Of a DNA stretch of 64,000 nucleotides, positions 28,900-55,877 are shown piece after piece. The DNA is from Kiritimatiellia bacterium. GTDB lineage: Bacteria > Verrucomicrobiota > Kiritimatiellia > CAIVKH01. How positions within the stretch are numbered: position 1 is the first letter of the stretch; every line of letters starts with the position of its first letter. The translations under genes were made by a program, and so were the position numbers. Under the pieces are notes generated by a model. It saw only the letters and a list, made by a program, of their open reading frames with translations. It was not told the origin of the DNA and searched no databases. The stretch covers positions 741,651-805,650 of the forward strand of contig JAOSKE010000001.1 of the NCBI GenBank assembly GCA_027493775.1. Direction: 5' to 3'.

Positions 28900-28925
28900 G
28901 AATGTCGGTTCTGCTGAAAAACCCC

Positions 28926-29129: not shown

Positions 29130-29176
29130 TTCGATACGCTATCTGATAGACTAGCTATTAGCAAGAGGAAATTATC

Positions 29177-30826: not shown

Positions 30827-31152
30827 TACGCCATCCAAAAGAACGAAGGCGCGGGCAAAAATGAGCAATCGAACGAATACAGTATGGCAATGCGCATGCC
30901 ACCTCGCACGTTAAGTATGTGTTGTGGCGAAGCGACTGCATATAAGAATGCAGGTCTGTGAGCTTTTTTGAGTGATGAGTTTTTTAAAAGAGGGGTTTTT
31001 CAGCAGAACCGAATGTCTAGACTTGACCCCAATTCCCCTACTGCCGCGACCCCAATTCCCCGCCAATTCCCCGCGTAGCACGAGCGCCCGTCAGAACGCG
31101 AGTAGGTCCGAGGCCCGCACCAGTGGGCCGAGGTAACATGACATGCCAACGA

Positions 31153-31683
31153 TTACGGTTCAGCCGCAACAGCACCACGGTCAACGATGCTGACGTCAAC
31201 AGCGCTAAACTTCCACTGGCCGTTTGTCTCCACGACGCGGATATCGTACTTCTCGCGCACAGTCATCTTGCCCCGGGACGACACAACCACTGCAACGATC
31301 TGAGTAGGCGACTGATTGGGGAACGCTTGGAAGTCTTCCAGCTTGATGCTGTGGAAGCCCGCCCGTTCATGCGCAGCATTGAAATCACGGCCCCGAGATT
31401 CTGGAATGGCATCTTCGCGCTCAACACCCGCAATGGCTTTGCGCGCTTCGGGCGTCAGATAGAAAAGGTAATCCCGCAAATTCGCCTCCACGTTGCTCTT
31501 CAAGAACCCAAGGAACGTCTTTTGTGGGGTCGAACAGTCGCGATGCGGAAGAGTATTCGCCACCGCGCGCGAAAGCTCTTGTCCTTGAAGTGCTGCCAGC
31601 GAAGGAGACTCTTCGGGCGGGCCGCCATGCACAGACAACGCAAACGCGAGAAGAAGCGGAAATAGTGCTGTTGGCTTTACCAT
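31153..31683 (-). CDS. Secreted hypothetical protein (NTF2-like/SnoaL-like fold suspected).
   Basis: Start MVKPTALFPLLLAFALSVHG is a signal peptide. The gene lies directly downstream of, and overlaps, the 1143-aa protein gene. Confidence 0.4.
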   Translation of the reverse strand: MVKPTALFPLLLAFALSVHGGPPEESPSLAALQGQELSRAVANTLPHRDCSTPQKTFLGFLKSNVEANLRDYLFYLTPEARKAIAGVEREDAIPESRGRDFNAAHERAGFHSIKLEDFQAFPNQSPTQIVAVVVSSRGKMTVREKYDIRVVETNGQWKFSAVDVSIVDRGAVAAEP

Positions 31684-34600
31684 GATCCACCTGACTTTGT
31701 GACATTGGTCCAGACTGGCGTTCCCGACGTTTCGTCCCAATACCAATAGACGTGAGGACTACTGTTGGCATCGATGACACAGGCATTCCGCCCGACGCCG
31801 AGGTCATTGGCTTGCTTCCACGCATCCACAATAGAAGCGCCTCCGCCCAAGGCGGACAGGAAGTTGGAGATGATTCCCGCCGAACCTTGATTATCAAGCG
31901 GAGCAGACCAGTTATAGCCCAAGAAATACTTCGGCCCAGTCGGTTCCCACTGGGCACCGGGCGACCACGCTCCTCTGGCCGCATACCACTGCAGCCAAGT
32001 GCCCAAGCCGAAACTCTGTGCGCGGTAATCCTTAATATCCAAGACAGAGCACCCAGCAAGGACTACGTAGTGCATATCCTTGTCCCAATAGCCGGTGACG
32101 TCGCTTGCCGAAAAACCACCCTGCAAAACCGCGGTGTCATGGCCACCATGTCCCGAGTAGTAGAAGTAATCCGCCTGATTCATGAGCTGGCGTTTGTGAC
32201 TGATCCCACAACTGTACTCGGCGGTAAGCACCTCCCGCCCCGCCGCGATAAAGAAGGTCTCATCAACTGGACTATTCGGCGGCGTCGATTCGAGATCGCC
32301 GTAGTTGGTGCTGCGGCCTCGTGTTTCCGCAGATGAGCCGCTCTCGAACGCTTCGCCGTCCGTCAGATTGGAGGGATCGGAAGAACTGCTGCTTCCGTGA
32401 TCGATCCACGCCTTCTCCGTGACTGAATCGCTCTCCTGACTCGGCAGGACACCGAGCGAAATCAGTTGAGCGCGCGTCAGTGCAACCCGCAACTCGGAGT
32501 ACCCACTTCCCTGCGTCAACGTCGTGTTCTGCGCAGTCAACGTAAAGTCTTGGCCGCTCGGAGCGGTCTCCGAAGTCTTGATCTTCAACGTCGTGCCGAG
32601 TGCGTCGAAGATGGTTTGAAGGTCGTTTAGTTGTGGCGTGATCTTGATCTTTATCCGGGTGTCCTTGTCCGAGAGGATGACTTTCCTTTCCTCCAGGTCG
32701 GCCCATCCCGAGTCGTCCGGATCGGCGAAAGTGATGTCCACAGAGAGGACGGCCATCTTATACTCGCCGCCCAAGGTGTTCGTATAGTCCGGATGCATGC
32801 CGAGATCCTGCACGAACAAGTAAGGGCGCGTATCGGCTCCTGCGCTGGCGCTGGTCACAACCTCCTGGTCACTGAGCCAGTGGACCCCTTTTTCAGTTGC
32901 GCCCCGCCACACCACCCGAAATTCCTCTTGCGTGCGACCCTCTTTAACCCAAACACACAAATCCATATCCGCCTTTAATCCCTCGAAATAGGTTTTGACC
33001 CATCCCTCCAAGCCAATATCCGTCATTCCATCGTTTACCCAACCCGGCAGCGAAGATTCATACCTGATAACATAGGGCTGGGCCATGGTGGAGTTTATAT
33101 CGTTGGGATCGCTGTTTTGTGCCAATTCATCATAATTTGAGATGCCGTCCCCATCCGCATCCGCATACAGATTGGTGCCTGGAAATGCCATCTCCCAACT
33201 ATCGGGTATCCCGTTGGCGTTTTCGTCGAGTACCAAGGGATTCCAGCCGTTGGCGATTTCATACGGGTCGCTACCCCACCAGTCGGACACCGCGCCAGAT
33301 GGCGGCGGCCAAGGAAATATGTCGCCATCCGTCGCCCAAGTGTTGGGATTCGTGCCGTGGGTGATGCATTCGGCATAGTCGGAGAGCCCGTCTCCATCGC
33401 TGTCGGCGTTGTGGCGGTCTGTGGGTTCCCCATAAGGGTTCAGGCTGCCTGTCAATTCCTCCTGATCGGTAAGCCCATCCCCGTCTGAATCGGGAATGTC
33501 GGCGGAAGAATTGGAGGTTGGGCTGCTTGTATACTGCCAGTCCATCACTTGATCGGTATCGTGCCCGTTGAACCGCCGATAAAGGCTCCTGCCGGCCCCC
33601 GCCGAAAGGGCATTGCTGCTAATCCAGCCGGTGGTGTCCAGTCCATGCGGGTTGAAGTTGGCGGCATTGCCGCCATACATCAGGCAATCGGCCACAAAGG
33701 TATTCGTGCCCACTTCCGCTGCGAGCCGCACCGCCGCTGTTGCGTCATTGGTGAACCGGTTGGGCATGGTGAAATCCACTTCCAAATCGCGATTCGTCAC
33801 CAGCGATCCGCCCAGCAGCAGGAACCGGCCCGGATCAATCCAGGTATTAGGCGGGAACACATAAGCATTGGTATAAGCTGTATCGGCAACCTGAATGACG
33901 AAGCCACCGAGATCCACAGGATAGCGTCCGGCGGAATATAGTTCGATCCACTCCTTGCCCCAATCCGTACCCGACGCGTCGTAAAGAACTTCATTGAGAA
34001 CGACGCCCCGCGCCAGCTTGGGAGCGCTGAACCGGTCGAGCGGATCGGTTTCCTCGGCCAGTTCCTCCGCATCGCTCCACCCGTCCCCGTCGGTGTCAGG
34101 ATTTCCGGGATCGGTGCGGTGAATGAAGATTTCCGCGCCATCGGTCAGCCCGTCGCCATCGGAATCCAACCGGTTCGCCACGGCATAAAACCGGACTCGG
34201 GCACTGGTGGGAATGTTCGCATCTTCAAAGATGCCAACCCCGTTAGTCAACACCAGATTGGTTGTCAGGCATTCCCACGCGTTTTCGATGCCGTCGAAGG
34301 GCGGGGAAACCGGATGCCAAGCCGTATGGCTGTTGGTCAAAACTTCGTCGTATTCGTTGGTCCAAACCACCACGGAAACGCTGGACGTGTGCCAAACGGT
34401 ATAGGCGAACACTTCGGCGGCGCTCGCTCCGTTCGTTACCGTGATCCGCATGGAACCATTGGTCAGGCACTGAATCCCGGCTATACCGAACTCGTTTGCG
34501 CCCAAGCTGCGCAAGACCATCCCGCCGGTCTTTTTCGTTTTGGCGGTCCGGGCTTCTTCGTACTCCGCGATGCGGCTTTCGGTGTATAGGTACGGCTCGA

Positions 34601-35108: not shown

Positions 35109-35141
35109 GAGTTATTTTTCGGGTCTATTGGGGGTCTATTC

Positions 35142-35566
35142 GGGTCGAGTAAAGACATTTTCTATTTAGCGCCTTCTCGCAATACAGATAAACGCATACT
35201 CGTGACGAATAGGTAGCTGAGGCGGGCAAGTGAGGTCGGCCAATACGGTGCTGTTGTAGGCGGTTGTTCAAACGAGTTGTCACAGGGTCTGACGACGAGA
35301 GCGAAGCGAGGAGGGACTCAGGGAACGAGTCGAAGCCACAGCAAGAAAGTTCATACGGTTGCAACATGTCTAGTTTTCCACGATTTTGCGCCATAATACA
35401 GCCCGCAAACGAACCACGCAGTTAACCATCAACCCTCCCCAGATCGTTGTCAACACGCCTTTTGCCTTGGCCAAAATCACCGATCATGAGAATTGATCCC
35501 CACTCCCCCGTTTTGATTTTTGGACGCGAGAACACAAACCAAATGTCGAATGTCTAGACTTGACCC
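35142..35566. repeat. REP/BIME-like non-coding element (about 425 bp) bounded by the inverted 19-bp palindromic termini GGGGTCRAGTCTAGACATT … AATGTCTAGACTTGACCCC. Copy 1.
   Basis: Left terminus at 35142-35159 (degenerate: gggtcgagtaaagacatt). Right terminus at 35548-35566. The interior is conserved with copies at 55022-55446 and 63017-63393. GGTCTATTGGGG direct repeats precede the left end. Confidence 0.55.
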
Positions 35567-35998
35567 CAACTGCTCTAACTGCTCCGGTGTCTTATTTAAA
35601 GCGTTGTTCAAATATTTTATACATACCTCAATTAGCTTTAGTCGCTCATCTTGCGCATCTACTAAACACGTGCTCAACTCTGCAGTGGCAGAGGTAGGCC
35701 ACACCTTTAATACACCACGAACATTCGGGTTCAAATAGACCTCAATACGACGCATCATGACATCACCGCTGATCCAAGTTCCAAATATAGAACACAAAAA
35801 CCTAAACAGATAGCTGCCAGCGTATTCACGCAAATATGAACCGCGCATCTCTCTTACAAAATAACCGCGACCATACGCGAGCAGGGTTATCTGTTCTTGT
35901 GGTGTTGTCGCAGAATCAACGCCTACATCCTGCCATCCATGGCGCTTCTTAATAAATTTTATATTGCTAATCTCATTCACCCGGCTCACGCCCTTCAT
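35477..35998 (-). CDS. Immunity-protein candidate for the CT3 Rhs toxin. Reads through its normal stop because of a 1-bp deletion relative to the paralogue at 55470..55877.
   Basis: The first 134 aa ([28 protein letters not shown]…CIKYLNNA) are identical to the 135-aa copy at 55470..55877. An A-run (tttaaag versus tttaaaag) shifts the frame, so the ORF extends into the REP-like element. The gene is AT-rich compared with the Rhs core. Confidence 0.5.
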
Positions 35999-36692
35999 TT
36001 TTTGGGGTTAGTTCATTTTCAATTGCCTCTCGTGCGGTCTGCTCTAGAAGTGCTTTAATCGGATGAGCCAACAGCGTCTTTAGATTAGGCCCATCATTAA
36101 TAAAATCTGCAATACCCTCAGAAGCGGGACCCTCGCCCAGAAGTGTGGTCACAATCTTCCTGATAAGCTCTTCGCTTGCCTGAATCGCTTGCCCGGGAAC
36201 CTTCAGTAGTTCTTTCGCTTGTTCTGCGAGTTGGGAGGCGACGTTGTCGTAAGCATCTACAAGATGCTCCCAAACCGCACCTGCAAAATTATTAAGCGTA
36301 TATTCTCCAGCTTTCCAAGCCGCATCGCGTGGGTTCTCTCCCAACCCAAGCGGGTCGATATAATTGACCGGATCCCCATGACAGTACAGATACAGATTTG
36401 CCTGTCCGCCCCGAAACAGTATGGGGTCTTTGGCCAGCCATCTCCCAGTCATCGGATCATAATCCCTGTAGCCAAATCGGACCAAGCCCGTGCCAGGGTC
36501 ATACATACCACCCGCGAATCCGAATGGCTGAAATCCCGGGTTCGTGTCCTCCAGAACACTGCCCCATTCGTCGTAGTCCATCCGCTGCGCAACGGCGCCG
36601 GTCTGGGCATCCACCACCAGCCGCACGCTGCCAAGATGATCTGTAATGATCCGATACACATTTCCGGTCGTCATCATGCCTATACTCTTCAT
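35973..36692 (-). CDS. Orphan Rhs C-terminal fragment: end of the Rhs core plus a C-terminal toxin domain of unknown activity (CT3).
   Basis: …[105 protein letters not shown] is the RHS repeat-associated core (DPxGL), followed by a roughly 130-aa CT domain. The same CT sits at 55852..56250. Confidence 0.7.
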
Positions 36693-36811
36693 GACGGTTA
36701 CCTCCGGGCTTCGTGGCGGGCCACCATGGCCGCGTCGTCAATTGCTTGATGGGCATTTTTACCCGCCCTTCATGTTATCTGACCCCGTTTGCCTGCTACG
36801 ACAATCACCCT

Positions 36812-36866
36812 CGCGATACCGAAATTTATCCGCGTCCCAAGAGGTTCATGAATAATCCGGGCTAAC
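36812..36866. mobile_element. Solo right-end fragment of the IS4-superfamily element (as at 54020-54075).
   Basis: CCGAAATTTATCCGCGTCCCAAGAGGTTCATGAATAATCCGGGCT matches the right terminus of 52383..54075. Confidence 0.45.
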
Positions 36867-36905
36867 CGCCTTTCATGCTATCTGACCCCTATTCCCTGAC
36901 CCCAA

Positions 36906-37619
36906 CTACTCCATCCCGTTCATCTCCCCTTGGCCATTACTGATGATCGCTTCGAACCACGATAGGTAATTCATAATGCCATGGCAGGCAATGGCAGGAT
37001 ATAGACTCTTATAGCGGTCATAAATCACTGTAATTGAAAAGATGAATATAACTCGAACAAGAAAACTCCGTACACTTGTTGTCGATGATAAGTGCATCAC
37101 CGAGTGTAGTAACGTAACAATTATCATACTCAGTGTTCTTCCCCAACGATCTCGCAAGGCTTGATAGATCATGCCTCGGTAAAGCATTTCTTCAGCAATA
37201 GGTGATGCCAATACACTGGTAAACCCGCGAACGGTTGTCAGCAGTATTACGCTTTTTATAAAGTGCTCGCCGGTGGAATCAAAAAGTATTGGGATCCTTA
37301 TAGCTGATGGAGAAACGACAACGTGTACAGTCAAGTATATGGCAAGACCAAGCACACCACCACGAATTAGGCCGCGACTGCGCTGCTCCCGCGTGAATCC
37401 AAGCAAATCCCACGTCGCAGAATGTCGGCGGAGTATTGTGCCGACTCCGACAAGGACCGCTACATCGTAAAGGAAAACGGCAACGTAGGGATTGTGTCGT
37501 AGTGAATTGCTGAAACAAACTGCGGTCCCTATCGTAACAACCAGCGCAAACGTCCACACAAAGGCGCAGTCACGTACAGACCATGGGACGCGATCGCCTG
37601 AGTGCGGAGTCGCGTTCAT
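36906..37619 (-). CDS. CPBP/Abi-family intramembrane metalloprotease (CAAX protease self-immunity). Immunity candidate for the CT2 orphan toxin.
   Basis: Polytopic membrane protein with the EEMLYRG (EExxxR) motif and HxxxH-like …LLHSVMH… It overlaps the stop of the 37616..39379 toxin gene. Confidence 0.65.
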   Translation of the reverse strand: MNATPHSGDRVPWSVRDCAFVWTFALVVTIGTAVCFSNSLRHNPYVAVFLYDVAVLVGVGTILRRHSATWDLLGFTREQRSRGLIRGGVLGLAIYLTVHVVVSPSAIRIPILFDSTGEHFIKSVILLTTVRGFTSVLASPIAEEMLYRGMIYQALRDRWGRTLSMIIVTLLHSVMHLSSTTSVRSFLVRVIFIFSITVIYDRYKSLYPAIACHGIMNYLSWFEAIISNGQGEMNGME

Positions 37620-39379
37620 TCATCCCCGAAATCCGGTTGGGTAAAGGAATCCAGAATGGGAGTGATTATATTCAACATGTCCACAGCTTGGTCTCCAGTC
37701 GCGGACGGGAGGCTGTCACGATACTCCTGGTATTGCTGATAGAAACCGAATGGAACACAGTCTGTGACATCCTTCCATGCATCGCAAAGACCTTTTCTTA
37801 CCTTGTCAATGGTGTCATCAATAAGATGGTAAATGATTTCAATTTCCTTTTTTGTCGAATCTATAATAATTTCTTGTATATCTTGAAAAAACAATTTAAC
37901 TTCTTCCCCTGTACCGTACGGATCAAATTTATTGACAGGATCGTTTCCAATATATACGTATAAATTCGCTTGTCCTCCCCGGAATAAAATAGGATCTTTA
38001 GCGAGCCAGCGACCCGTCGTTGGGTCATAATCCCGATAGCCGAACCGCGTCAGCCCGGTATCCGGATCGTACAGTCCACCCGCGAACCCGAACGGCTGAA
38101 AGCCCGGATTGCTGTCCTGTAGGACGTTCCCCCATTCGTCGTAGTCCAAGCGTTGCACCACATCGCCGCTGGCAACATCAATGACCAGCCGTACGCTCCC
38201 CAAGTGGTCCGTAATGATCCGATACACATTTCCGGTCGTCACCATATAGTCCGGCACATTTACCCTGGTGGCGTACACAAATCTGGCAACTACTTGATTA
38301 TTTGAGTTGACCTCCGCCGCCGGCGTCAGAAAGCCTTGATATACCCACCCTTTATTCAACACACCATTAACCTTCTTGCCCACGCGCCGCCCCAGCGGAT
38401 CCAAGAGATATTCGTATGTATTGGTCCCAACCCGTACCTCCATCAGGCTGCCCCGCGTATCATACCGCGTGGCTCGCGTCGGAACTGCTCCATACATATT
38501 GGTCACCTGACCGTTCGCATTGTACTGGTACTGAATCAGACCCCAGAAGCTGGCCGTCAGCCGATCCTGGGCATCGTATTGATATGTTCTCGATGATCCC
38601 GCAATCCAGCTATTAGTCCGGTTTCCATTGGCGTCATACCAGTACCGCGCGCGCAGGCTTCCATTGGTGTACACCTCGTGGAGTCGCCCCACGGAATCAT
38701 ACACATAGGCGTAATTGTTTGTGACGCCCTCGATTCTCTCCAACCGATTCGTGATCCGTCCCAGCTTGTCGTATGAGTAGTCCACGCCGTAATAGACGTA
38801 ATCGTTGTCGAATACAGCTTCGTATGAACTCATCTCTCCGAGGGCATTGTACTTCCGGCGGTCACCGATATCGCCGACGACGGCATTGGTCAACCAGCCG
38901 CTAACCGTATCGCGATATAGCGTCATCGTCCCTGCATTCGTCAACAATCCGTCCAGGTCATACCCATACGCAACCGCGCTACCGCCCAACTCGACGCTCG
39001 AAATCCGAAAGTCGTTGTTGTAGCTGTAGCTCATGCGCCCAGTGATTACACCGCTTTGCGTCAGGTTCGTCAACAGTCCTCCGTCATAACCGAAGATCAA
39101 GCTTGCCCCGTTGGTCGCGTAGATGCCGCCCAACCGCCCCCGTGCGAGTGCGTAAGCCGAGCATGGGGGCTTGGGGTCTGATCCCGCGCGCGCCGCACGC
39201 ATCGCAGGAGACATGCCAGTGCGTCGTCGCGCTGGCGCGGCTCCTGGGCGCGCGCGTCCGCCTGTGGCGAGCTTGTCGAGCCAGCGCGAGTGAGCGTACG
39301 CGAACGAGCATAACGAGCGACCAACGGGAGCGAGTAGCTCCGAGGGCCGCGCCAGCGGCCCGAGGCAAGAGACAATCAC
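37616..39379 (-). CDS. Orphan Rhs C-terminal module (YD repeats, Rhs core, and CT2 toxin domain). Rhs homology begins near 39190.
   Basis: From …CACGRLGGIYATNGASLIFGYDGGLLTNLTQSGVITGRMSYSYNNDF… onward it is about 85% identical to the main Rhs (39725..43631) through …[33 protein letters not shown]. Then comes a unique roughly 100-aa CT (…GTGEEVKLFFQDIQEIIIDSTKKEIEII…). The first roughly 85 aa of the ORF are out-of-frame GC-rich junk. Confidence 0.7.
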   Translation of the reverse strand: MIVSCLGPLARPSELLAPVGRSLCSFAYAHSRWLDKLATGGRARPGAAPARRRTGMSPAMRAARAGSDPKPPCSAYALARGRLGGIYATNGASLIFGYDGGLLTNLTQSGVITGRMSYSYNNDFRISSVELGGSAVAYGYDLDGLLTNAGTMTLYRDTVSGWLTNAVVGDIGDRRKYNALGEMSSYEAVFDNDYVYYGVDYSYDKLGRITNRLERIEGVTNNYAYVYDSVGRLHEVYTNGSLRARYWYDANGNRTNSWIAGSSRTYQYDAQDRLTASFWGLIQYQYNANGQVTNMYGAVPTRATRYDTRGSLMEVRVGTNTYEYLLDPLGRRVGKKVNGVLNKGWVYQGFLTPAAEVNSNNQVVARFVYATRVNVPDYMVTTGNVYRIITDHLGSVRLVIDVASGDVVQRLDYDEWGNVLQDSNPGFQPFGFAGGLYDPDTGLTRFGYRDYDPTTGRWLAKDPILFRGGQANLYVYIGNDPVNKFDPYGTGEEVKLFFQDIQEIIIDSTKKEIEIIYHLIDDTIDKVRKGLCDAWKDVTDCVPFGFYQQYQEYRDSLPSATGDQAVDMLNIITPILDSFTQPDFGDE

Positions 39380-39762
39380 CTAGCGCCAAGCGTAACATTC
39401 AAGGGCAAGACGGTGAACGCGGCAAAAACGACTGCAAGAATAACCAATAGAATGCCCGCGACTCGCAATGTGGCACTGTAATCGTGCGCGAAATGAATGC
39501 GCTGATTGACAACCCACAATAGAATTGACGCGGCCGCCAACACCCAAGGCAGGCACCACCAGACAGGCTGCATCACGTACAGCGAACCGGCCTTTTCTTC
39601 ATAAATTTCCAAAAGAAAAGGCCGAAGGCCGCGGACGAGAAACGCACACCCCAGCCAGAGCAACAACCCAAGAAAGGCAGAAGTCGAAATTGTTTGAATG
39701 TGTTTCAATGCGCGCTTCACAAAGTTACTTCTGTGGAGGATCGGGATCTGGTTTCTTGCCAC
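39376..39762 (-). CDS. Small membrane protein. Immunity candidate for the main Rhs CT1 toxin.
   Basis: 128 aa with 3 TM helices (…AFLGLLLWLGCAFLV…, …WWCLPWVLAAASILLWVV…, …GILLVILAVVFAAFTVL…). It overlaps the Rhs stop. Confidence 0.45.
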   Translation of the reverse strand: MARNQIPILHRSNFVKRALKHIQTISTSAFLGLLLWLGCAFLVRGLRPFLLEIYEEKAGSLYVMQPVWWCLPWVLAAASILLWVVNQRIHFAHDYSATLRVAGILLVILAVVFAAFTVLPLNVTLGAR

Positions 39763-42700
39763 ATCCTTGATCCTTCATTTGGTCCAGAATCCAGTCGATC
39801 AATCGTTGGTGCCGCCACACTTCGATCATTCCCCAGTAATTCCACTTATTGCCAGGCTGATCCAAAACAGCATCATCAACCTTATTCGCGATTTGGCCCA
39901 TAAGGTGGGCAAAACCTCCAAGAATAGATTCGCCGATGCTTTTCTCGAATTCGTTGATCACAGGGTCGGGGTGTCCAGAGGCGGGATTACCCGCTTGATA
40001 GCCTCCGACTTGGCTCGGCGGAACCCCCTGTTGTGCAACCTGCATCGCAATCGCTTGGCCTTCCTGGGCAAGACCAAGTGCGGTCTGCAATTCTTCGCAA
40101 GTGTAAAGGCCCCAGGGATCGATGTAGTTGATCGGGTCGCCGTAACAGTAAGCGTAGAGGTTCCAACCTCCTCTAAACAGGATGGGGTCTTTAGCGAGCC
40201 ACCTTCCAGTCATCGGATCATAATCGCGGTATCCGAACCGCGTCAGCCCGGTATCCGGGTCATACAGACCTCCCGCAAACCCGAACGGTTGGAATCCGGG
40301 GTTGGTGTCCTGCAACACGTTCCCCCACTCGTCGTAGTCCAACCGCTGAACCACCTCTCCGCTATCAACCTCAATGACCAGCCGCACGCTGCCCAAGTGG
40401 TCCGTGATGATCCGATACACATTCCCCGTCGTCTGCATGAAGTCCGGCACGTTTACCCGCGTCGCATACACGAACCGCGCCCGCAGGCTCCCGTCTGCGT
40501 TCAGTTCTGCGATCGGCCGCAGAAACGACTGGTAAATCCAGCCCCGCTCAAATTGGCCATTGACCTTCTTCCCAATGCGCCGCCCCAATGGATCGAGCAG
40601 GTATTCGATATCCGTTCCGTCGGGCAGTCCGACGAACGCCAAGCTGCCCCGCAGGTCGTAGTCATACGTGATGGTATCCCCGGAATTCGTGCTGAACTCG
40701 TCCACTGAAAAGTTCAACCAGCCGTTTGCGTGAAAATAGTTGGTCACCCCGCTGTACGAGGTCAACTGGTCCTGCTCGTTATACGTCCACTGGCGCGTCT
40801 GCCCCATCACCCAACTGCCGGTCCGGTTTCCATTCGCGTCATACCAGTACCGCGCACGCAGGCTTCCATTGGTGTACACCTCGTGGAGACGCCCAACAGA
40901 ATCATACACGTACGCATAGTTGTTTGTGGCGCCCTCGATTCTCTCCATCCGGTTCGTAATCCGCCCCAGTTTGTCGTATGAGTAGTCCACGCCGTAATAA
41001 ACGTAATCGTTGTCAAATACAGCTTCGTATGAACTCATTTCGCCAAAGCCATTGTACTGCCGCCGGTCGCTGATGTCGCCGACGACTGCGTTGGTCAGCC
41101 ATCCGCTCGCCGCGTCGCGGTACAACCTCATCCCTCCCGCATTCGTCAATAACCCGTCCGCGTCGTAGTTGTAGGCCGCGACGTTGCCACCGAATCCGAT
41201 CCCCGCCACCCGAAAGTCGTTGTTGTAGCTGTAGCTCATGCGGCCGGTGATTACACCGCTTTGCGTCAGGTTCGTCAATAGTCCTCCGTCATAACCGAAG
41301 ATCAAGCTCGCTCCATTGGTCGCGTAAATCCCGCCCAACCGCCCGCAGGCGCAGTCATAGACGTTGGTCACTTTGTTTTCCGGCCACTGAACACCAACCA
41401 GGAAGCCAGCCTGATTGTATTCGTTGGTGATTACGCGTCCATCAGGATACGAAATGCTCGTGAGATGGCGCGCTTCGTCCCAGGTCATCAACATGTTTGT
41501 CGGTCCGCCGACCGAAGGCGAGGAATAACGATCCAACAACCCCACGGCGGTGTAGCCCAACGTGTGCTCTGTCCTACCGGGCGGCGTTACCCCAATCGGG
41601 GCGGTTGTCGGCTGGGGTCTCAACCCGATTACAGAACTGTCGGGCAGCACAACATTCGTCACACGTCCAATAGCGTCTCCCCGCAACAATACCGATTCGT
41701 CCAATGCGTTGGTAAACGCAGCCCGAAAACCGTTTGTAGCATAGGCCAGATGCACGACCCGATTAGACTGTTGAATTTTACTCATACGGCCATAAACGTC
41801 ATAATCTACCGTCACAGGAATGATGCCGGGCATATTCCATTGAACGGGCCGCCACTGCGAATCGAATTCGACTGCGCTCGTCTTCCCCATCGGCGAAACA
41901 CTCTGTAGCGTACGATCAATGGAGCTGAAAACAACCTGTGAAGTCCGTCCATTTACCGTGATCCAGTTTGTAAACGAGAGCAGTTGGCTTGCCGGGTTGG
42001 TTGGAACGAGAAGCGAATATGACCTGCCGATGCGGATGTCGTTCGTCAATCCAGCAGGCGTACGCACCACAATTTGCGTCTCAACCATAACGGAGGAACC
42101 GAAGCGAGGATCAGCAACCGATCGGGTTAAGGTCACCATCCCATTGGGGCTGGTGACCTCGGAGGTCAGCCCGTCGGAACTGGTTCTGGTTCTCGTCACG
42201 GCGCCGGCTGAATTGATTGCTTCATCAACGCGGTCTCCATTCCAATCCGTAGATGAATTATAAACATTTGTCCGATTCAGCGAGTACGTATGTACAATAC
42301 TTTTTCGGTTATATACATTCGCTAGAGTCACCGCATCGAAGCCACCCGCCGGATCTTCCGCCCGCATGGCCTTGCCTTCGGCATCATAGGTGACCGCATA
42401 AACAAATCCTCGGCGCGAAACGATATTGGTGAGCAAACCCGATTCCGAGTATCGGAACAAGTTGGTTTCGCCGGCAGGATTAACCAATCCGGCGAGCCAC
42501 TCATTGCTGACAACAAGATCGGTCTTTAGCCCGAATGGCCCTATAATGGCGGTTACCTGCCCATTGGTCATTCTCACCAGCGTTGTGGTCAGGCTGTTTG
42601 CGTCAACGACCTCCGTCAACAGATTGTTCGTGTCGTACACGAACGTATAAATATCTGCTCCGGTCAGCGCATCGACCGTTCGTAAATGCCGCCCATCCGG

Positions 42701-43631
42701 ATCCAGGACATAGTATTCGCTGCCGTCCGTCGCAACGGCAGCAAATTCGTTTGTGGGCGGGGTATTGGTGATGGAGAAAGAACATTCGGCATATCCCACG
42801 GGCGCAATTTTTCGATCACGGCCTTGACCTTCATGTAGATACCCGCTTTTCCCGTCGTACGAATGATATAAATTGATCGTCCAGCCACCCAACCCCCGAG
42901 AGCTGGCGGGCAAAGCTCCGAGATAAGAAACATCCTTTTTTTTTGCGAGAGGTATACCAAGGGATAATCGGCCTCTGCCTCAGTTGATCTTCCGTATATA
43001 GTTCTGACTCTCCAGCTACAGAATACAAACCCGAACGCTCTGTAATCGGCTTGTTTACAATTGCATGCGGATCCAATACATATCCCCCGTCAATAGGGGA
43101 AATAGCGCCACGGCTGGAGGTGATAAATAGTCCTCCAGAATATCGTTCGCCGCTAACGTTTTCATATTCATCCAGCGTGAGTTTATCCATAAATATTGCA
43201 GTCGAGTCCACAACGGCTGGTGTTGTTCCATAAACAAAATTACTTTCGGCATCGCGACCATCCCACAAAAGGCTCCAATAGTGATTGGTGAATGGCGCCG
43301 CCTGTGTATGCCTGAATATGCGCCCGGCAATATTCACTGTTAACTCAACGGATATCATGTTGTTCGGAAATGTATTCGGGTCGGCATACCACACAACAAG
43401 GTTATACGCGGGCATATACCCGCGAGTTCTTCGGCTGGAATAGTGCAGCACAAAAGGCGTGCCTACAACCGGCATGTCTTCATGAAAGCTCGCATCGGAC
43501 AACACAATATATCCATAATTCGTGGGGGTGACGGGACTGTCGGGCGGGGTCTGTTTTGCGGCCCAGCCGTCTTGCGCAACGGCCCATACCACGCCAAGAA
43601 CGAGACCCATCAAGGAAAGGCGACGATTCAT
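39725..43631 (-). CDS. Rhs/YD-repeat polymorphic toxin (WapA-like, Sec signal peptide) with C-terminal toxin domain CT1. One frame break at an A9/T9 run.
   Basis: 42831..43631 is the N-terminus (signal peptide MNRRLSLMGLVLGVVWAVAQDGWAA). 39725..42913 carries many YD repeats (…GRITNRMERIEGATNNYAYVYDSVGRLHEVY…), the core …[33 protein letters not shown], and then a roughly 130-aa CT. The frames switch at the T9 run at 42936-42944 (…SRKKK…). Confidence 0.8.
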
Positions 43632-44278
43632 GGTTCACATCCTTTGCAGGGATTCCCTGAAATGACCCGGGGCAAAACGCGCTCAAAGCCCGATAAGGGA
43701 TTGCTCGCCATCGAGCGAGCCGCCAAATCTTGGGCAAGCGCTGGATTTGTCTCTTTCAACAACTGAAGCGCAACTATCCGATTTTGATCTTCGGCTTTAT
43801 CGGAGAGAAGCAATGCCGTCGCCGCATTTTCAATGTCGCTGGAAGAAGCCTTGGGGTCCGATTTCATCACCAGCATAGCCGTGCCGGCGCTTTTGTTTTT
43901 CACATCAAACGCCGTTTGTTTCAAAAAATCGCCAATGGCGCGTTGCTCCGAAGCCGAAACTTTCTCGCGCAGGTTTAGCTGTAAATACTGCATGATATAT
44001 TCGCGCGTAACGCGCTCGCAGTCAGTCTCGCCCGCAATCGCAATCAATCGCTGCGCCAAATTGGGAACAGGCGGCGATTTCGTTGTGATGCGCCGCAAGA
44101 GCCGATCTTTCTGTCCCAGCCATTCTCCGGCGGAAATATCCTTTGGCGGCTCTTTCATCGCAATGTAGGCCAACGCCCGTTCATCTTCGGTTAAGCCTTC
44201 ATTGGACCACACAAAGGGGTTCTGAGCCGCTGCGGAATATCCGGCAACAACAATGAACAAAATGAATAATGCCTTCAT
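43628..44278 (-). CDS. Secreted hypothetical protein between the giant LamG/TSP3 protein and the Rhs toxin (start/stop overlaps on both sides).
   Basis: Signal peptide MKALFILFIVVAGYSAAAQ. 216 aa, helical. ATGA-type overlaps at 44275-44278 and 43628-43631 indicate one operon. Confidence 0.45.
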   Translation of the reverse strand: MKALFILFIVVAGYSAAAQNPFVWSNEGLTEDERALAYIAMKEPPKDISAGEWLGQKDRLLRRITTKSPPVPNLAQRLIAIAGETDCERVTREYIMQYLQLNLREKVSASEQRAIGDFLKQTAFDVKNKSAGTAMLVMKSDPKASSSDIENAATALLLSDKAEDQNRIVALQLLKETNPALAQDLAARSMASNPLSGFERVLPRVISGNPCKGCEP

Positions 44279-47200
44279 GGTCCGCCGTGCCTCCCTATGA
44301 AGTTCGTCCCTTGGTAAACATCAATGATGTTGCAGAACGCGCCGGGTTGGTACTTGATGAACCGCACATTCAGCACGCCGGTTTCATCAAACTGCGAGGG
44401 CAGCCACTGATTGGTGATTCCACCATCTTCATACATGACGCCACCGATAATGACCTTGCCCTGAATTGACAAATCATCGAGCAAGGGACTCAGAACAAAT
44501 GGATTTTCGTACAAATAATAATCGGCGCTGCAGGCGCCTAGCCGCGTAAACCCGGTGTCCGAATCGGCTCCGAAACGAAAAGCGCGGGCTTTTGTTGAGG
44601 CGATGATCGGCCCCTGCGAACCCAAGCGGGCAACGATACCGTGTTCGTCGGGTGTCAATGCCGTAAGGCGGAATGTTCGCGGCGTTGCGTAGGCATCTTC
44701 TTCAATAATCAAATTATTGCCCGACTCAAGAAGCACATTCGTGGACAGGCCCGGAGACGTCCATGACCGGGGCACCCTATGCCAACACGCGGGGCTCTCG
44801 TCAAAGTTTGCTGAATATACGAGCACGGTAATGGCGCCATATTGAGTGGGACCAGCAGCGGGGTAATATGCGCCGGAAACCAGATAGCTTCCGGTTGAGG
44901 CAAACGTGTGGGCAATAGCAGCGCCGGCGGCAAGTCCCGTATAGTTGGAGCCACCCGTGATCGTAATGCTGTGCGTGCCTGATGTTGCCCCAACAGGAAA
45001 GGCCGATAACTTCAGTGCATCATTGAGCCGAATTGAAAGTGTGGCCCTATTCGTCAGCACATCGGTTGCAGACCACGTGACCAGACAGGTGGAAATCAAT
45101 CCGCTGTGCTGGAATTCAAAGCGGCAAGCGGTCGCATTGGTCAAGTTCAGCGGCACATTGGCGTACCACCGGCCATCAATACCGGACTGAACCGTGACTC
45201 CGCCATCAGCCGAAATCAGCCCGACGAATGGATCCGGTCCCTCCACACAGGCCGGCGAGATGGCGCTGGAAACGCTGTTTGTATCCAAGCCGCTCAATCG
45301 TGCCAGTCGGTTCTCTACCCAATCTTTCTGTCCGTCCTCATCCGTATCGGCGCCATCCAGTTGGATCAGTCGTATCGTATGGATACTCAGGCGACGGGCG
45401 TCGGATGCATTATCCCATTCAAGGGTCAGCGAATAAACACCTGCGGTCATCCATGGTGTGAAGAATCCCGCCCGCCCGCTTCCGTTGGTTTCAGCAAAGA
45501 GGATTTGTCGCCCCAGATAGGCTCCGCCTACCTTGGCTTTCAATTCATATGAGTTTAGCGTTTTCCACGACTCGCAATCGCCGCCCTCAACTTCGATGCG
45601 ATAGATATCGCCCGTGGGTATTGTCAGGTTATACCTAACGGCACCTCGCAATCCGACCGAGCACAGATAATCGCCGTCTTCAGTCCATGGCCCTAAACGG
45701 CTAACCGTAGCGGTTCCCGGCATTTCAGATACCGTGACATAATTCGTGTAGTCGGCTTGAAGCGGGTTGCTGCCGAAGTCATACACCTCCATGGCGTCAT
45801 CCAACCCGTCGCCATCACTATCTTGAGAAAAGGGATTTGTTCCGTGCTGGTATTCTTCAAGATTTGAAAGTCCATCCCCATCCGAGTCCAACAGGGCATC
45901 GCTTGGATCATTAGGATTAAGTCCGTTGATATATTCCCAATTATCGGGCAATCCGTCGGCATCGGTATCCGCACTTTGTGGATTCGTCCCAATACGATAT
46001 TCGTCCAGGTTGGATAACGTGTCGCCATCGGGATCTAAAACGGCATCTTCAGGTGCGTTTGTACTCAAAATAGCGGGCCATAAAACCTCCCATCGATCAG
46101 GCATTCCGTCGTGATCGGTGTCCTTGCTTACCTGGACGGAAATATCGTCGAAATAAACATGCCCCGGAGGGACAAGATTTACGGTCGGAGCGACAGTGCG
46201 CAGTGATATATGGGCGAACCCCGCGCGGCTGGGCACCAAGCTCGTGATTGAATAATACAGCCACGTATCTTTTGCATGTTCCGCAGTCATCCTTGCCGTA
46301 TCGACCCGTGTTTTGTGCCCATCTGTCGAGTCGTAATACTCCAAATCAATGACCGCATATCGGTCTCCGCTGAGCGCATTTGTATCGATACCATTTGTCA
46401 CGGAGGGGGTGTACAGCCAACCACCGACAACCAGTTCTTCTCCCGGATGCACGACAATCCGTTGATAGGCGCCGTCCAAGTCTCGGGCCACAAATGACCG
46501 AATCCCACTGTGAACGATTGAAGTAGAAACGCCGCCATCCAAGCCAAACCCGCCCCAATTGGGCATATTGGTATGCGAAGTGGGCGTCCCCGTTTCAAAT
46601 CCTCCGTTCCGAAAACGAGTTTTGTCTGGATCCAGCCGATAATCGGCATTGAAAAATTGCGGGCCAACCGCTTGCGGATAAACGATGTAATTATTGTAAC
46701 CGTATCCGTTTCCGAGTTCCTGAGGTTTATCGATAACCCACAGATATGATTCTTGCTGAGCATTCGTGAGCACTCGGAGAAGTATTGAATAATACGCTTG
46801 GACGTAGTTGCTTTCGACCGCCGACGGCATCGGCCACGAGAACTTGAACACCGGGAGCGTCACCTGCCCCATGGTTGGCATTCCATGGAAGGGATTCGCT
46901 GAAGCGATTACCACATTTGAATAAAATGTACCCGCATATTCGGGGGAAGCCCAATTGCTACCGTTTGTCGTCCAGGAAAATCGCAGGAACAGTTGAGTGG
47001 TACTGCCATCACGCAATCCAAGCTTCGGCGGCAAAACCAAAAATGCAGTATTGGTTTTCGAGTCGTAATCCACCATCAGGAAGCGCTGCCAGTTTTGCGG
47101 AACGGGTTCCCATGTCGCAATGCTGTCACTGGAGCGCGAATGATAAACCCAATTGCTGTTGATCCCCGTTATGGCAATCGTGTTGGTCGGATTGCGCCCC

Positions 47201-50200
47201 AAGATTAATTCTGTTCCGTCATCGATTCCATCGCTGTCCGTATCAAAAACCAGCGGACTGGTTCCGTATATAAAAAGCTCGTCGTAGTCTGAAATCCCGT
47301 CTCCATCCGTATCTGTCAGACGGGGGTCAGTACCATGAACATTGATTTCATCCCAATCAGATAAACCGTCTCCGTCAGAGTCTTGAACATTCGGATTCGT
47401 GCCCAGTTCGTATTCCTGAAGATTGGACAACCCATCGCCATCCGCATCTCCGAGGGCGTCGTACATCGTGGCCACGTCGTTGCTGGAGAGAGCGGAGGTG
47501 TAGAGACGAACGTCGTCGAGCTGGCCTTTCCAAAAATAGCTGTCGCCCGGATCGTTGGCCCAACCAATGCGCAGTTCTGGTTCCATCGCGGGTGAAAAAC
47601 TTCCGCCGTTGGAGGCGACTTCCACTCCGTCGCGATAGAGACGGGTGGTCGAACCGTCGCGGGTCAGGGTGATTTGCGTCCACTTTCCGGCAATCGGGGA
47701 TTGGTGAATCGGGAAGGAGCTTCCACCGGCACAATTAGCAAGAAAACCGCCATAGCCATTGTTGAAGTTGTCCCAACCGAGCCAGAAACCTTTGTACAGG
47801 TAGCCGCAAAGAATGAAGTCGGCGATGATGGAGGGGTAATGCGAAGTGAAGGTTCCGTCGAGATTTACCCAGGCGCTGGCCGTAAATGTCGAACCCGTTA
47901 TCATGGCCACGGGCTGCAAGACTCTTACGTAATCGTCCGTGCCGTCGAACGACAAGGCGCCGCCCAGCATCCCGGAGGTCCAGGCGTTGGTCGGCATGTT
48001 GACCAATTGCCCGTTATAGCCGCTGCCCGCCGAGTTCAATGCGTTTGTCCCTTCCGTTTCATCGAATTTCCACCAGCCCTCGCCCTCCGCGGGCACACGC
48101 GAGGTCGGATTGAATCCATGCAGCATCTCCCACCAATCCGGCATTCCGTCCGCGTCGGAGTCGGGATCGATGAGCACAAGGTTTGCGTTCGTTGTGCTTT
48201 GCGCCAGCAAAATAGGGTTGTTGCTATACGCTCCCCACGCCTCGGCGTTGTCTTTCGACGCATTCGTGTTCGAATCCCGATATGCCTTCAACCGGTAGCT
48301 GGTCTGATTGGGAATATTGCTGATCGTGTATGGGCCGGGACCGGGGATGGTTGTCGTGAAGAGGGAGAGGTTCGTTCCGGAACCTGTCGCATACAGGCTC
48401 GCTACTTCGTCGCCATCGAGGGTACGCGCGTAGATTTTCACCTCGTCAATGCGCCCCTTCCAGTAGCGATTGGGAGCCGTTGAGTATCCGTTTCCGATGG
48501 CCACGTTGTCCATGGATGGGTTGAGGCCCACCGTTCCACCCTGTCCCTGATGGGAGGAGTGAAACTTGTACGTCCCGTTGTAGTACCCCCACGCATTGCT
48601 CCGATTCCACGTCAGGACGATGTGTTGCCAGCTTGCCGTTGGCATGCTGGCGGTGTACCAACACTGGCCGGTCAGACCCAGGCCGCCCCCGATAAATTCC
48701 CCCGTGCTGTAGGCTTCAAACCGAATGCAGTCGTCCCATCCGGCATAGTCTGTGGTGAACGGGTTTCGCCAGTTTTCCACTTCATCGGGGTTAACCCAGT
48801 AGGAAATGGTTCCTTCGGGCAGTACCCCCATGGGGCCAACAAGGATGTGATCGTTGGTGCCGTCATACCAATAAGCGCCGCCGCGATAGCCATTTGTGAC
48901 ATAAACAGCGCCGTTAACGATTCCAGTATAAAGCGGTGAGATCAGGTTTGAAACGCGACTCGTGTTCGGAATGTCGAAATCGTAGTGAAGCAGAAGCCCG
49001 GCTTCGATTTCGGCGCTCACAATGATCGGCCCCGTTTGTCGCCCGCTATACGTGATCACGCCGGCAAGGTTGACGGGATAAGAATCGGGCTGAGTCGGAT
49101 CGGTGCCTGCCTGGAGTTCCAACCAGTCAGCAGCGCCATCGCCGTCGCTATCGGGATCATACAGATCAATATCCACGCCGACCTTGTCAGCGCCCAGGAG
49201 AAAGCCGTTGCCATCATAAAACCCGACGGGCTCAAAATAATCTCGCATGCCATTTCCGTTGCTGTCCAGCCAGGCCATTACCCAGTAGTTGCTCAGAGTC
49301 GGCACGTGCGCGAATGAATAGGCGCCTGTGGTTGATTGGGAGGTGGTGCGCGTGTATTCGTCCGTGAAGCTGCTGCGGTAAATCCCCGCAATTTCCGCAT
49401 CGGTCAAGGTGGCGCGATAAAGCTGCACTTCGTCCATGAGGCCCCTAAAGGTCCAACCAGCTCCAGGGGACAGGTCGCCCAGGGCAGCGGTTACGTTATT
49501 GGATCGAATGGGCTGCGTGGCGAACACCGCGCTGGTGGCCACGAGACTGCCGTTCAGATAGAGCTTCGTTTGGACGCCGTTATAGGTTGCGAAGAGGTGC
49601 TGCCAGACGCCGTTGGTGATAATTGAGTCCTTAATGGCATCGCGAACACCATTTTGGTCAGCCGGCAGTATGCGCGTTTCAACACTCGATCCGTTGTTAG
49701 CCAAAATCATGTAGAGAGAGTCATCCCCAAAATAGGTCTTGCCCAATATGCCACCGAGCCAGATGCCAGGCTCGGCCTGAATCCATGCGCCCCAACTCAG
49801 ATTGTTGATGCCGACGGCCTGATATAGTTTTCCGAGTGTGATGGTGTCATTCCCGTCGAACGAATAGGCGCCGCCATGCTTGCCATTCGTTGTCCAGGTC
49901 GCCCCATTGACGGTCAGCGGAGTCTGCCAGGCGCTGTTGTCATACGTCGGTCTTGTGGCATCAAAACTCAATGATAACGCCGGTTGGTTTGTGATTACGG
50001 GATAAGCGGTGAGCTGAATGTGCAAGGCGCCCGTCTGTGATCCCGTGTAGCCGATTCGGCCGCTGAGCGTTGCTGGGAATGAGGCAGGGTTCAGTGGGTC
50101 GGCGCCATAAAATATTTCGAAAAAGTCCGTAGCGCCATCCCCGTCGCTATCAGCGGACTGAGGGTCAGTGCCCAATGCGTATTCTTGAGCATCGCTCAAT

Positions 50201-54358: not shown

Positions 54359-55000
54359 TTACGGCTGCGGAAGCAGGTTTTGGCATGCTGTTCTACAGTT
54401 GTGGCCGATCAGATTATACTCCGGCTGCATAGCCGTATATGCCTCGGCACGTATGTCGGCTGCTGTTGCCTCCTCGGGACTAACCGGATGAGCAACATAG
54501 TCATCACTGGGAAGCAACTGTTTGTCGAGTGGCAGAGGGGGGCCGTAAGTAGCCAGACCGGGAACCCAATCAAGCAGCGTCGAGAGTGTTAAGTCATTCG
54601 CTGGCCGGAAGTCGAATCTGCGATAGCCATCTGGCGTCGGAATTAGCAGATATGTGTGATTAATTCCTTCTGGATTCATTCCAGTGTAGACGGCATTGCC
54701 TTCTCCCAATCCCAACGAATCCACCCAATTGACCGGGTCGCCATGACAGTAGAGATAGAGGTTCGCTTGGCCACCTCCGAATAGGATGGGGTCTTTGGCT
54801 AGCCATCTTCCAGTCATCGGATCATAATCCCGATACCCGAACCACGTGAGACCCGTATCCGGGTCGTAGAGCCCCACCCGCAAACCCGAACGGCTGAAAG
54901 CCCGGATTTGTGTCCTGTAGGACGTTCCCCCATTCGTCGTAGTCCATCCGCTGCGCAACCGCGCCGGTCTGGGCATCCACAACCAGCCGCACGCTGCCAA
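54359..55000 (-). CDS. Orphan Rhs C-terminal fragment with a distinct CT4 toxin domain. One frame break.
   Basis: The core …[58 protein letters not shown] is followed by a roughly 120-aa CT ending …[20 protein letters not shown]. The upstream part ([47 protein letters not shown]) is in another frame (ORF 54822..55073), with an extra C in the run at 54872-54875. Confidence 0.6.
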
Positions 55001-55469: not shown

Positions 55470-55877
55470 TTATTTAAAAGCGTTGTTCAAATATTTTATA
55501 CATACCTCAATTAGCTTTAGTCGCTCATCTTGCGCATCTACTAAACACGTGCTCAACTCTGCAGTGGCAGAGGTAGGCCACACCTTTAATACACCACGAA
55601 CATTCGGGTTCAAATAGACCTCAATACGACGCATCATGACATCACCGCTGATCCAAGTTCCAAATATAGAACACAAAAACCTAAACAGATAGCTGCCAGC
55701 GTATTCACGCAAATATGAACCGCGCATCTCTCTTACAAAATAACCGCGACCATACGCGAGCAGGGTTATCTGTTCTTGTGGTGTTGTCGCAGAATCAACG
55801 CCTACATCCTGCCATCCATGGCGCTTCTTAATAAATTTTATATTGCTAATCTCATTCACCCGGCTCACGCCCTTCAT
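55470..55877 (-). CDS. Immunity-protein candidate for CT3 (intact copy, 135 aa).
   Basis: [26 protein letters not shown]…[10 protein letters not shown]. It lies immediately downstream of the CT3-encoding Rhs fragment. Confidence 0.5.
   Translation of the reverse strand: MKGVSRVNEISNIKFIKKRHGWQDVGVDSATTPQEQITLLAYGRGYFVREMRGSYLREYAGSYLFRFLCSIFGTWISGDVMMRRIEVYLNPNVRGVLKVWPTSATAELSTCLVDAQDERLKLIEVCIKYLNNAFK

Follow-up and report, generated by a model that had tools for sequence, protein, structure and literature searches.

The stretch of DNA analysed here (the window) comprises 64,000 nucleotides of a Kiritimatiellia bacterium (GenBank assembly GCA_027493775.1, contig JAOSKE010000001.1, positions 741,651 to 805,650), and it carries an rhs gene with two orphan modules behind it, each of which consists of a truncated rhs core, a putative C-terminal toxin tip (CT) and a partner gene. 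The open reading frame (ORF) calls, read directly, place all genes of this array, hereafter array I, on the minus strand. The main rhs gene (39725..43631) codes for a Sec-type signal peptide, a putative FN-plug of the teneurin type, a YD shell and, at its C-terminal end, the tip CT1 (39728-40105). It is followed by Imm1 (39376..39762), a basic protein of 128 aa (isoelectric point, pI, 10.3) with about three transmembrane (TM) helices, as judged from hydropathy. A GC-rich spacer of 236 nt (39140..39375) extends from the Imm1 stop codon to the start of homology of the first orphan module, orphan 2. The core of orphan 2 (37913..39139), identified by blastn and alignment and matched by Pfam TEN_YD-shell, leads into the tip CT2 (37616..37912, including the stop codon) and then into a gene for a CPBP/Abi intramembrane protease of 237 aa (36906..37619; Pfam PF02517). 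Next come 213 nt of insertion sequence (IS) debris (36693..36905), recognized by matches to resident IS copies, and orphan 3, with its core (36342..36680; alignments and NCBIfam Rhs_assc_core), the tip CT3 (35973..36341, including the stop codon) and the immunity gene candidate Imm3 (35477..35998). The array ends with a miniature inverted-repeat transposable element (MITE; 35131..35590), which was delimited from repeat families D5, D13, D14, D17 and D20 together with the inverted-repeat listing.

A first-pass annotation, made from the sequence alone, had described two 5′-truncated rhs fragments behind the main gene, cut at different points and each carrying a distinct tip and a downstream partner gene. 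The alignments bear this out and place the cuts at 39139 and about 36680. Homology of orphan 2 starts sharply at 39139, which corresponds to 41344 in the main gene (GRLGGIYATNG), and nothing upstream of this point aligns by blastn or by pairwise alignment, in agreement with the abrupt start described earlier. The retained core, given as about 400 aa in the first reading, measures about 409-413 codons, is equivalent to residues ~523-934 of the main ORF and matches Pfam TEN_YD-shell with an E value of 1.7e-29. The identity of the core to the main gene had been put at about 85%, a figure that has to be revised: overall it is 75% at the aa level and 72% at the nt level, and the core is a mosaic in which blocks of 91-93% identity lie on either side of a middle part of 38-55%. 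Seven exact identity runs of 20-33 nt are common to the two genes. Orphan 2 has no signal peptide, no N-terminal trafficking part and no frame-conserved upstream start; the ORF that enters it through the GC-rich tract differs in frame in other samples, and internal starts are conceivable. Promoter-like sites occur no more frequently than in shuffled sequences. Both junctions of the module were seen in independent contigs. Orphan 2 is the 3′ part of an rhs gene, and it was presumably displaced from such a gene.

The tip CT2 follows the core at DPYG, as noted before, and spans 98 aa (37619-37912). The boundaries between core and tip in the array are DPWGL, DPLGL and, in orphan 2, the variant DPYGT. 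CT2 is acidic (pI 4.1), lacks a TM segment and is probably helical, to judge from an all-helical AlphaFold2 single-sequence model of low confidence (predicted local distance difference test, pLDDT, 52). The ATG of the CPBP gene overlaps the TGA of orphan 2 (ATGA, read directly), and the CT2 gene would be translationally coupled to the CPBP gene. The same CT2-CPBP pair occurs on short Logan contigs of other samples with at most three substitutions. The immunity genes had been described as richer in AT than the core, and the base composition agrees: the GC content is 47.8% for the CPBP gene (42% in its 3′ half) and 43.5% for Imm3, as compared with 54-56% for the cores; CT2 itself has 40.5%.

The gene behind CT2 had been recognized by its EEMLYRG motif as a CPBP/Abi gene, and this assignment is upheld by the Pfam Rce1-like/CPBP profile PF02517, which matches with 60 bits (cut-off 22.4; E 2.9e-16). 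The protein contains EEMLYRG, H176 and H213xxxN217, together with four separate hydrophobic stretches, and residues E143, E144, R148, H176, H213 and N217 are invariant in 10 members of its subfamily. A word-indexed search with the CPBP recovered nothing but this same protein, encoded on short Logan contigs of other samples. An exhaustive HMMER search of 1.84 billion proteins yielded 2156 CPBPs at E≤0.001 and 22 at E≤1e-10; the best relatives (P0002-P0012) are full-length and 23-33% identical, with invariant catalytic residues. The genomic context was looked up for nine relatives, eight of which lie next to an Rhs tip or a tip-like tail. The distance from the stop codon ranges from −8 to +18 nt, with one looser case of about 1.2 kb. 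In P0005 (L007) there is an overlap of 8 nt between the CPBP gene and the stop of an Rhs protein, in which DPFGL precedes a 105-aa tip; in P0006 (L008, GCA_003551625.1) the overlap is 4 nt and involves the stop of an orphan rhs fragment, which in turn lies behind another rhs tip module. The CPBP gene begins 4 nt past a full-length RHS protein of 1975 aa with NHL repeats and no PAAR hit in P0007 (L010-L012), and 4 nt past an Rhs tip in both P0011 (L179) and P0012 (L180). On two short contigs, those of P0002 (L004) and P0004 (L006), the upstream tail is homologous to the CPBP-linked tips, and for P0009 (L013) the end of an Rhs core is found 1.2 kb upstream. The neighbour of the ninth, P0003 (L005), is unrelated and not Rhs. 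Because the GC content of these loci ranges over 32-56% and their flanking genes differ, they represent independent lineages.

As controls we used 79 generic CPBP loci from species genomes and 80 from metagenomes, obtained by scans with CPBP alignments that returned almost only generic CPBPs. No Rhs core was present near any of these 159 loci within the fetched flanks of 4-5 kb, and the linkage to Rhs tips is, therefore, specific to this CPBP subfamily. The possibility that the CPBP gene is a chance neighbour of CT2 was ruled out by the same control loci. The earlier proposal that the CPBP is the presumptive immunity protein of CT2 was a guess that the eight of nine linked relatives and the absence of Rhs from the control loci have made much stronger. 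On this evidence we consider the CPBP a credible cognate immunity factor for CT2, one that probably acts proteolytically.

The three tips of array I are 98-126 aa long, strongly acidic (pI 4.1-4.7), free of TM segments and mutually unalignable, and their partners are basic (pI 9.4-10.3). Profile searches for CT1, CT2 and CT3 had been proposed in the first-pass annotation; they found no known polymorphic-toxin domain, and neither these tips nor Imm1, Imm3 and the related tips gave anything significant in Pfam, NCBIfam and PDB profile searches. CT2 had no PDB match through a profile of the tip alignment and no homologue in a word-indexed search. A concatenate of CT1, Imm1, CT3 and Imm3, a non-standard query, also found no match in the word-indexed search; the query did not even recover itself, since that collection has no record of these genes in this form. 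Most of the tips upstream of the CPBP relatives have in common a C-terminal core of about 50 aa, YxxYQxxRDxxPPGxPxTGxPxVD, which is followed by an amphipathic acidic helix. In leave-one-out tests this motif scored 57 bits for L006, 41 for L004, 29 for L007, 27 for L008 and 17-19 for L010, and a metagenome scan with it returned no match. CT2 scored 11.7-12.1 bits and ranked first against 5000 shuffles (1 of 5001); the copy of CT2 in L003 was the best non-training match among 15,189 background ORF segments, with an E value of about 0.1, and the full-length orphan 2 ORF of the window gave an E value of 7.8. On these scores CT2 is at best a divergent member of the motif-bearing tips, and the robust signal is the linkage between the CPBP and Rhs tips, not the homology of CT2 to the motif. 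In the motif-bearing tips the segment N-terminal to the motif is rich in aromatic residues, and the L179 tip (L179:1-879), with a subfamily CPBP gene next to it, combines an Ala/Gly-rich hydrophobic region of about 100 aa with a CT2-like C-terminal motif. From this architecture, the motif may be a module that has been attached to membrane-acting tips, and the aromatic or hydrophobic N-terminal parts would fit a membrane-directed action.

A motif shared at the extreme C-terminus of otherwise variable tips also raises another possibility, namely that the CPBP is a processing or sorting protease that cuts this motif in the producer cell. CPBPs of the myxosortase group (MrtX, MrtC, MrtJ and MrtS) are likewise linked to proteins with a common C-terminal motif and process C-terminal tags of secreted proteins (PMC11980579). 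The invariant catalytic residues are compatible with such a role, and the best NCBIfam similarities of the window protein are to MrtJ, MrtS and Mrt_core. All of these scores, however, fall far under the cut-offs of the NCBIfam models (40 versus 75, 32 versus 130 and 21 versus 100, respectively), and the tips lack the tripartite signal: they have no invariant Cys motif, no TM helix (maximum Kyte-Doolittle hydropathy over 19 residues, KD19, below 1.5) and no basic tail, the end being acidic instead of Arg-rich. Moreover, sortase-type enzymes are encoded by one gene for many substrates, whereas the CPBP and its tip are paired one to one in a cassette and travel with orphan cassettes in the manner of immunity genes, both in L008 and in the window. 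The core itself releases Rhs tips, through aspartyl autoproteolysis at DPxGL, which also speaks against a dedicated processing enzyme. We regard a processing role as quite improbable.

The interpretation that we favour, with moderate confidence, is that array I is a partly decayed array of spare tips behind the gene for a Sec-exported, teneurin-like Rhs toxin, and that the CPBP is the immunity protein for CT2. Orphans 2 and 3 would be silent reserves whose partner genes protect against their tips. Because orphan 2 has exact runs of 20-33 nt in common with the main gene, tip switching is possible in principle: RecA-mediated homologous recombination could exchange CT1-Imm1 for CT2-CPBP, with deletion of CT1-Imm1. 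The CPBP would cleave or capture the tip at the inner membrane. Cleavage is favoured over sequestration since the catalytic Glu and His residues are invariant, and the proteolysis envisaged here is modelled on Abi-type bacteriocin immunity (Kjos et al. 2010, as cited in PMC8538875). Such cleavage at the inner membrane would point to CT2 as a membrane-directed toxin. A broader hypothesis can be framed for the subfamily as a whole, in which its members provide enzymatic immunity through intramembrane proteolysis of tips from a family not described before, small, acidic and membrane-directed, with YxxYQxxRDxxPPG...VD and an amphipathic helix at their end; Rhs proteins of the Sec-exported, teneurin-like type would deliver these tips in diverse uncultivated bacteria. 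We put this hypothesis forward only tentatively, as possible but on balance not the likelier outcome.

Several observations weigh against the favoured interpretation. The toxicity of CT2 and the protection by the CPBP are predictions from sequence. The close relative P0003 is not beside an Rhs gene, CT2 fits the shared tip motif marginally (E about 0.05-0.1), and the L180 tip is not significant for it. All of the tips are small and acidic, with neither an enzymatic signature nor a known toxin fold, and the structure predictions were uninformative (pLDDT 52 for CT2 and 43 for Imm3). Finally, the main rhs gene is frameshifted and Imm3 has lost its stop codon, and thus, the locus may be inactive, unless these indels are sequencing errors, as they may be.

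Orphan rhs arrays are textbook knowledge and ordinary by themselves. Orphan rhs-CT/immunity modules have been described in E. coli, Salmonella, Dickeya and Serratia (Poole et al. 2011, PMC3150448; Starsta et al. 2020, PMC7043789). Array I resembles these enterobacterial modules in its 5′-truncated cores that are homologous to an upstream full-length gene, in the DPxG(L) boundary followed by a differing tip and a small partner gene, in the lower GC content of tips and partners relative to the cores, and in a homology sufficient for recombinational tip switching. It differs from them in several respects. A PAAR, VgrG or type VI secretion system (T6SS) context was detected neither for the main Rhs protein of the window nor for that of L011, the one full-length carrier of a CT2-like tip checked; the former has a Sec signal and a putative FN-plug resembling that of teneurins, and the L011 protein has NHL repeats. 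In addition, one of the modules was presumably cut by IS activity, and it is a copy, made by conversion or duplication, of a module in a second array, and the tips of the window are small and acidic and lack a known toxin domain.

A parallel to the CPBP itself is found among the Abi/CPBP bacteriocin self-immunity proteins SkkI, PlnI and PlnL (Kjos et al. 2010, cited in PMC8538875), for which the proposed mechanism is proteolytic inactivation of a membrane-acting toxin. Like these proteins, the window CPBP belongs to PF02517, retains the three catalytic motifs, is encoded directly downstream of the (putative) toxin gene and is embedded in the membrane. Unlike them, it is not a protein of Gram-positive bacteria directed against small class II peptide bacteriocins, its partner being the encapsulated tip of a large Rhs protein, and its identity to CPBPs outside its subfamily is low, with only the 22 of 1.84 billion proteins at E≤1e-10. 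PrsW peptidases of polymorphic toxin systems are another parallel: they are membrane-embedded distant relatives of CPBPs and are linked to polymorphic toxins. They are, however, fused N-terminally to the toxin and were proposed to release it (Zhang et al. 2012, PMC3482391), whereas the window CPBP is encoded by a separate gene in the immunity position. The same 2012 survey names CPBP merely as a PrsW relative (PMC3482391). In the literature searched with the terms CPBP, CAAX and Abi, no report ties CPBP to Rhs, T6SS, the type VII secretion system (T7SS), contact-dependent inhibition (CDI) or polymorphic-toxin immunity. One paper that appeared to link CPBP with a toxin (PMC8163844) was set aside, as 'CPBP_' is just a locus-tag prefix there.

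The new element here is a CPBP/Abi subfamily that accompanies Rhs tips in lineages whose GC contents range over 32-56%. To our knowledge, nearly all known immunity proteins of polymorphic toxins are stoichiometric binders; protease-type immunity, if true, would connect Rhs systems with bacteriocin immunity of the Abi type, the mechanism of which is unresolved. With 98 aa for the tip and 237 aa for the protease, the pair is tractable for testing that mechanism, and the finding sets out a candidate toxin family with no relative in Pfam, NCBIfam or PDB.

The downstream part of array I has a different history. Orphan 3 (35973..36692) retains about 113 aa of core, close to the 100 aa noted earlier and equivalent to residues ~826-936 of the main ORF, and continues into the 122-aa CT3 after DPLGL. 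CT3 is acidic (pI 4.6), and a second copy that differs by one silent single-nucleotide polymorphism (SNP) is present at 55852-56220. The CT3 module is not unique in the window: CT3 and its partner recur with about 100% identity at 55.4-56.5 kb, the whole region 35134-36656 being repeated at 55014-56535. Between 36470 and 35465, from the end of the core through CT3 and the partner ORF into the initial 100 nt of the MITE, the copies differ by one silent SNP and one 1-nt indel; outside this stretch the identity is about 94% on the core side (against 56222-56535) and about 80% in the remainder of the MITE. Because CT3, its partner and the start of the MITE are about 100% identical and the flanks 80-94%, the comparison indicates that orphan 3 was recently gene-converted or duplicated between the two arrays. 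The partner of CT3 had been listed as a 135-aa ORF; that is the native form, which is found in the duplicate (55470..55877, ending in ...NNAFK*), whereas in array I the ORF (35477..35998) codes for 173 aa. A 1-nt deletion in the T-run at 35598-35600 removes the stop codon of the array I copy and adds 38 codons that run into the MITE, which is inserted a few nt past the native stop codon. The Imm3 candidate is basic (pI 9.4), has no TM segment and is predicted to be soluble. Its candidacy as the immunity protein of CT3 derives from its position and its co-duplication with CT3.

The 5′ end of orphan 3 adjoins the IS debris at 36693-36905. This debris consists of the left-end remnant of an IS4-like element (36862-36903 plus 36714-36759), interrupted by an end fragment of about 70 nt from another IS (36798-36864); the matching resident sequences lie at 59478-59603, within a full IS4-like copy, and at 54009-54075 and 25339-25398. 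The full IS4-like copy occupies about 58080-59603, with its transposase at 58181..59377. In other samples an uninterrupted IS4-like end follows the CPBP gene. The order of IS4 end, rhs-CT3, Imm3 and MITE is the same in both arrays, and what is missing from array I is the remainder of the IS plus about 1.2 kb of core. Because the 5′ cut of orphan 3 adjoins the IS4-like debris, we infer that this truncation arose by an IS-associated deletion and not at a clean displacement junction. IS elements, MITEs and gene conversion would thus shape such arrays, beyond C-terminal displacement.

The MITE is about 450 nt long and is present in full copies at 35131-35590, 55011-55457 and 63008-63405 and in a partial copy at 57872-58078. 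It has no transposase, and its terminal inverted repeats (GGGTCGAGTCTAGACATT / AATGTCTAGACTTGACCC) are common to IS1182-like copies at 26.4-31.0 kb; subterminal repeats are also shared with the two adjacent IS1182-like elements there (26422-28571 and ~28880-31033), the transposases of which carry DDE_Tnp_1_6/DUF772 domains. Every full copy of the MITE abuts an rhs module, and the MITE bears an outward-reading ORF. At 63230 this ORF provides an in-frame ATG to a truncated rhs gene, which results in a 797-aa fusion ORF with no signal peptide. The second array (54359-63405), also on the minus strand, contains three more 5′-truncated rhs modules. One of these (60837..63230) ends in a hydrophobic glycine-zipper tip and precedes the gene of a HEAT-repeat protein whose N-terminal segment is hydrophobic (59657..60298), another (57281..57862 plus 55852..57306) carries CT3 and the 135-aa Imm3, and the third (54359..55000) has yet another tip. 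The full IS4-like element and an IS of the DDE_Tnp_1_4 type (52656..53864) lie within the second array region.

Three 1-base length differences were detected, all of them in homopolymers: A9 at 42936-42944, T3 at 35598-35600 and C4 at 39173-39176. The first of these breaks the main rhs gene into two ORFs, an upstream half with the Sec signal and the FN-plug (42831..43631) and a 1062-aa half with the Rhs shell and CT1 (39725..42913), and a run of A8 would fuse both. Other run lengths are known for two of the three, for the C-run in other samples and for the T-run of Imm3 in array II, with T4 in place of T3, and a difference from other samples was actually shown for the C-run of the tract alone. 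The split 266-aa product of the main rhs gene is not on record elsewhere. Since each of the three indels falls in a homopolymer, they look like errors of long-read sequencing left uncorrected rather than like pseudogenisation; phase variation is conceivable as well. A more severe view is that the whole region is a non-functional graveyard of decaying pseudogenes broken up by IS elements and the MITE. The frameshift in the main rhs gene, the lost stop codon of Imm3, the IS debris and MITE between and behind the modules, the 5′ truncation of every other rhs copy in the window and the presence of at least five IS copies in the 64 kb would all be expected on this view. It does not account well for the intact CT2 and CPBP ORFs, which are nearly identical in several independent samples (at most three substitutions), or for the identity of CT1-Imm1 in other samples, and the confinement of the indels to homopolymers fits sequencing error. 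Immunity genes of orphan arrays, in addition, are useful even with a silent toxin part. We consider a graveyard unlikely and retain the partly decayed array as the preferred explanation.

The GC-rich tract between Imm1 and orphan 2 (39140-39375) had been singled out as an anomaly at the 5′ junction of module 2, and its GC content of 70.8% is indeed the highest 236-nt value in the window (mean 55.7%, standard deviation 5.1). It had been called rich in GAGCG and GCGCGCG repeats; both motifs are present, but each occurs just three times, and a search for tandem repeats in the tract found none. The tract is a set of palindromes, one of which is long and imperfect and has the GCGCGCG copies in its arms. 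In at least five more sequencing runs, Logan contigs contain CT1, Imm1, the tract and the core of orphan 2 with no difference other than C5 in place of C4 at 39173-39176, and the Imm1 gene is identical in 9 Logan contigs. Because the C4/C5 difference breaks the reading frame across samples, the tract is most likely non-coding; the earlier remark that it encodes no sensible protein is consistent with this, and a role as coding sequence was rejected on this ground. An assembly artefact was also rejected, as the tract is identical in independent assemblies.

The tract may be a recombination scar brought in with the CT1-Imm1 cassette, or it may be a resident element resembling repetitive extragenic palindromic (REP) sequences. 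As an alternative to a passive scar, the tract could have a function of its own, for example that of a small RNA, a terminator, an insulator or a REP-like element. On the plus strand the predicted fold has a z score of −3.5, and none of 200 shuffles folds as well, but the gene-sense strand, with a z score of −0.5, folds no better than shuffles. A 36-nt hairpin motif, CCTCGGSCCRCTGGYGCGGSCCTCGGASCTACTCGC, is found at 39330-39365, 13 nt past the Imm1 stop codon, and again at 31098-31133, 12 nt past the stop of a putative minus-strand ORF (31153..31746), with a compensatory G/C exchange in one stem pair, and in this genome it may represent a terminator or a REP-like element. These are, however, the only two copies in the 64 kb, and none of 185,579 species genomes contains a 26-mer taken from the tract; the source species is not among these representative genomes. 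No Rfam family matches the tract at the gathering threshold or even at E≤1, a tRNA search of the tract was empty, and the terminator and promoter scan gave nothing beyond chance and no T-tract terminator. The identity of the tract across samples would fit a function, but this conservation is limited to near-identical strains. A functional element is, in our assessment, rather unlikely, if less so than a wholly decayed locus.

The domain content of the main rhs gene supports its assignment. Pfam TEN_YD-shell and RHS_repeat and NCBIfam Rhs_assc_core and YD_repeat_2x match it, and PF05593 and PF25023 match both the main gene and orphan 2. The YD repeat (TIGR01643) scores 63.7 bits, and the Rhs-associated core (TIGR03696, cut-off 32.5) scores 79 bits in the main gene and 81 bits in orphan 3. 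The FN-plug match in the ORF 42831..43631, which the frameshift parts from the shell, is below threshold (25 bits versus 27.8), and Pfam detected no PAAR domain in the main rhs gene. Upstream in gene order lie, first, a gene for a giant LamG/TSP3 protein of 2042 aa (44275..50403) and, second, a 216-aa ORF between this gene and rhs, both on the minus strand. The three are joined by successive 4-nt overlaps (43628-50403), which suggests that they form one operon. An ISL3 element (transposase 50637..51950) adjoins the annotated GTG start of the LamG/TSP3 gene, which may be 5′-truncated, and the ISL3 site (50388-51950) is the second most GC-rich stretch in the window.

Elsewhere in the window, an ORF resembling FeoB (10901-12556) matches the profile of the FeoB N-terminal G-domain just from profile position 105 on, and the gene may be 5′-truncated or its start miscalled. 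A near-perfect inverted repeat with 57-nt arms that are 82% complementary and an 8-nt spacer (unit AAAACTTCCAACCCTTGGAAGT) is located at 4927-5048.

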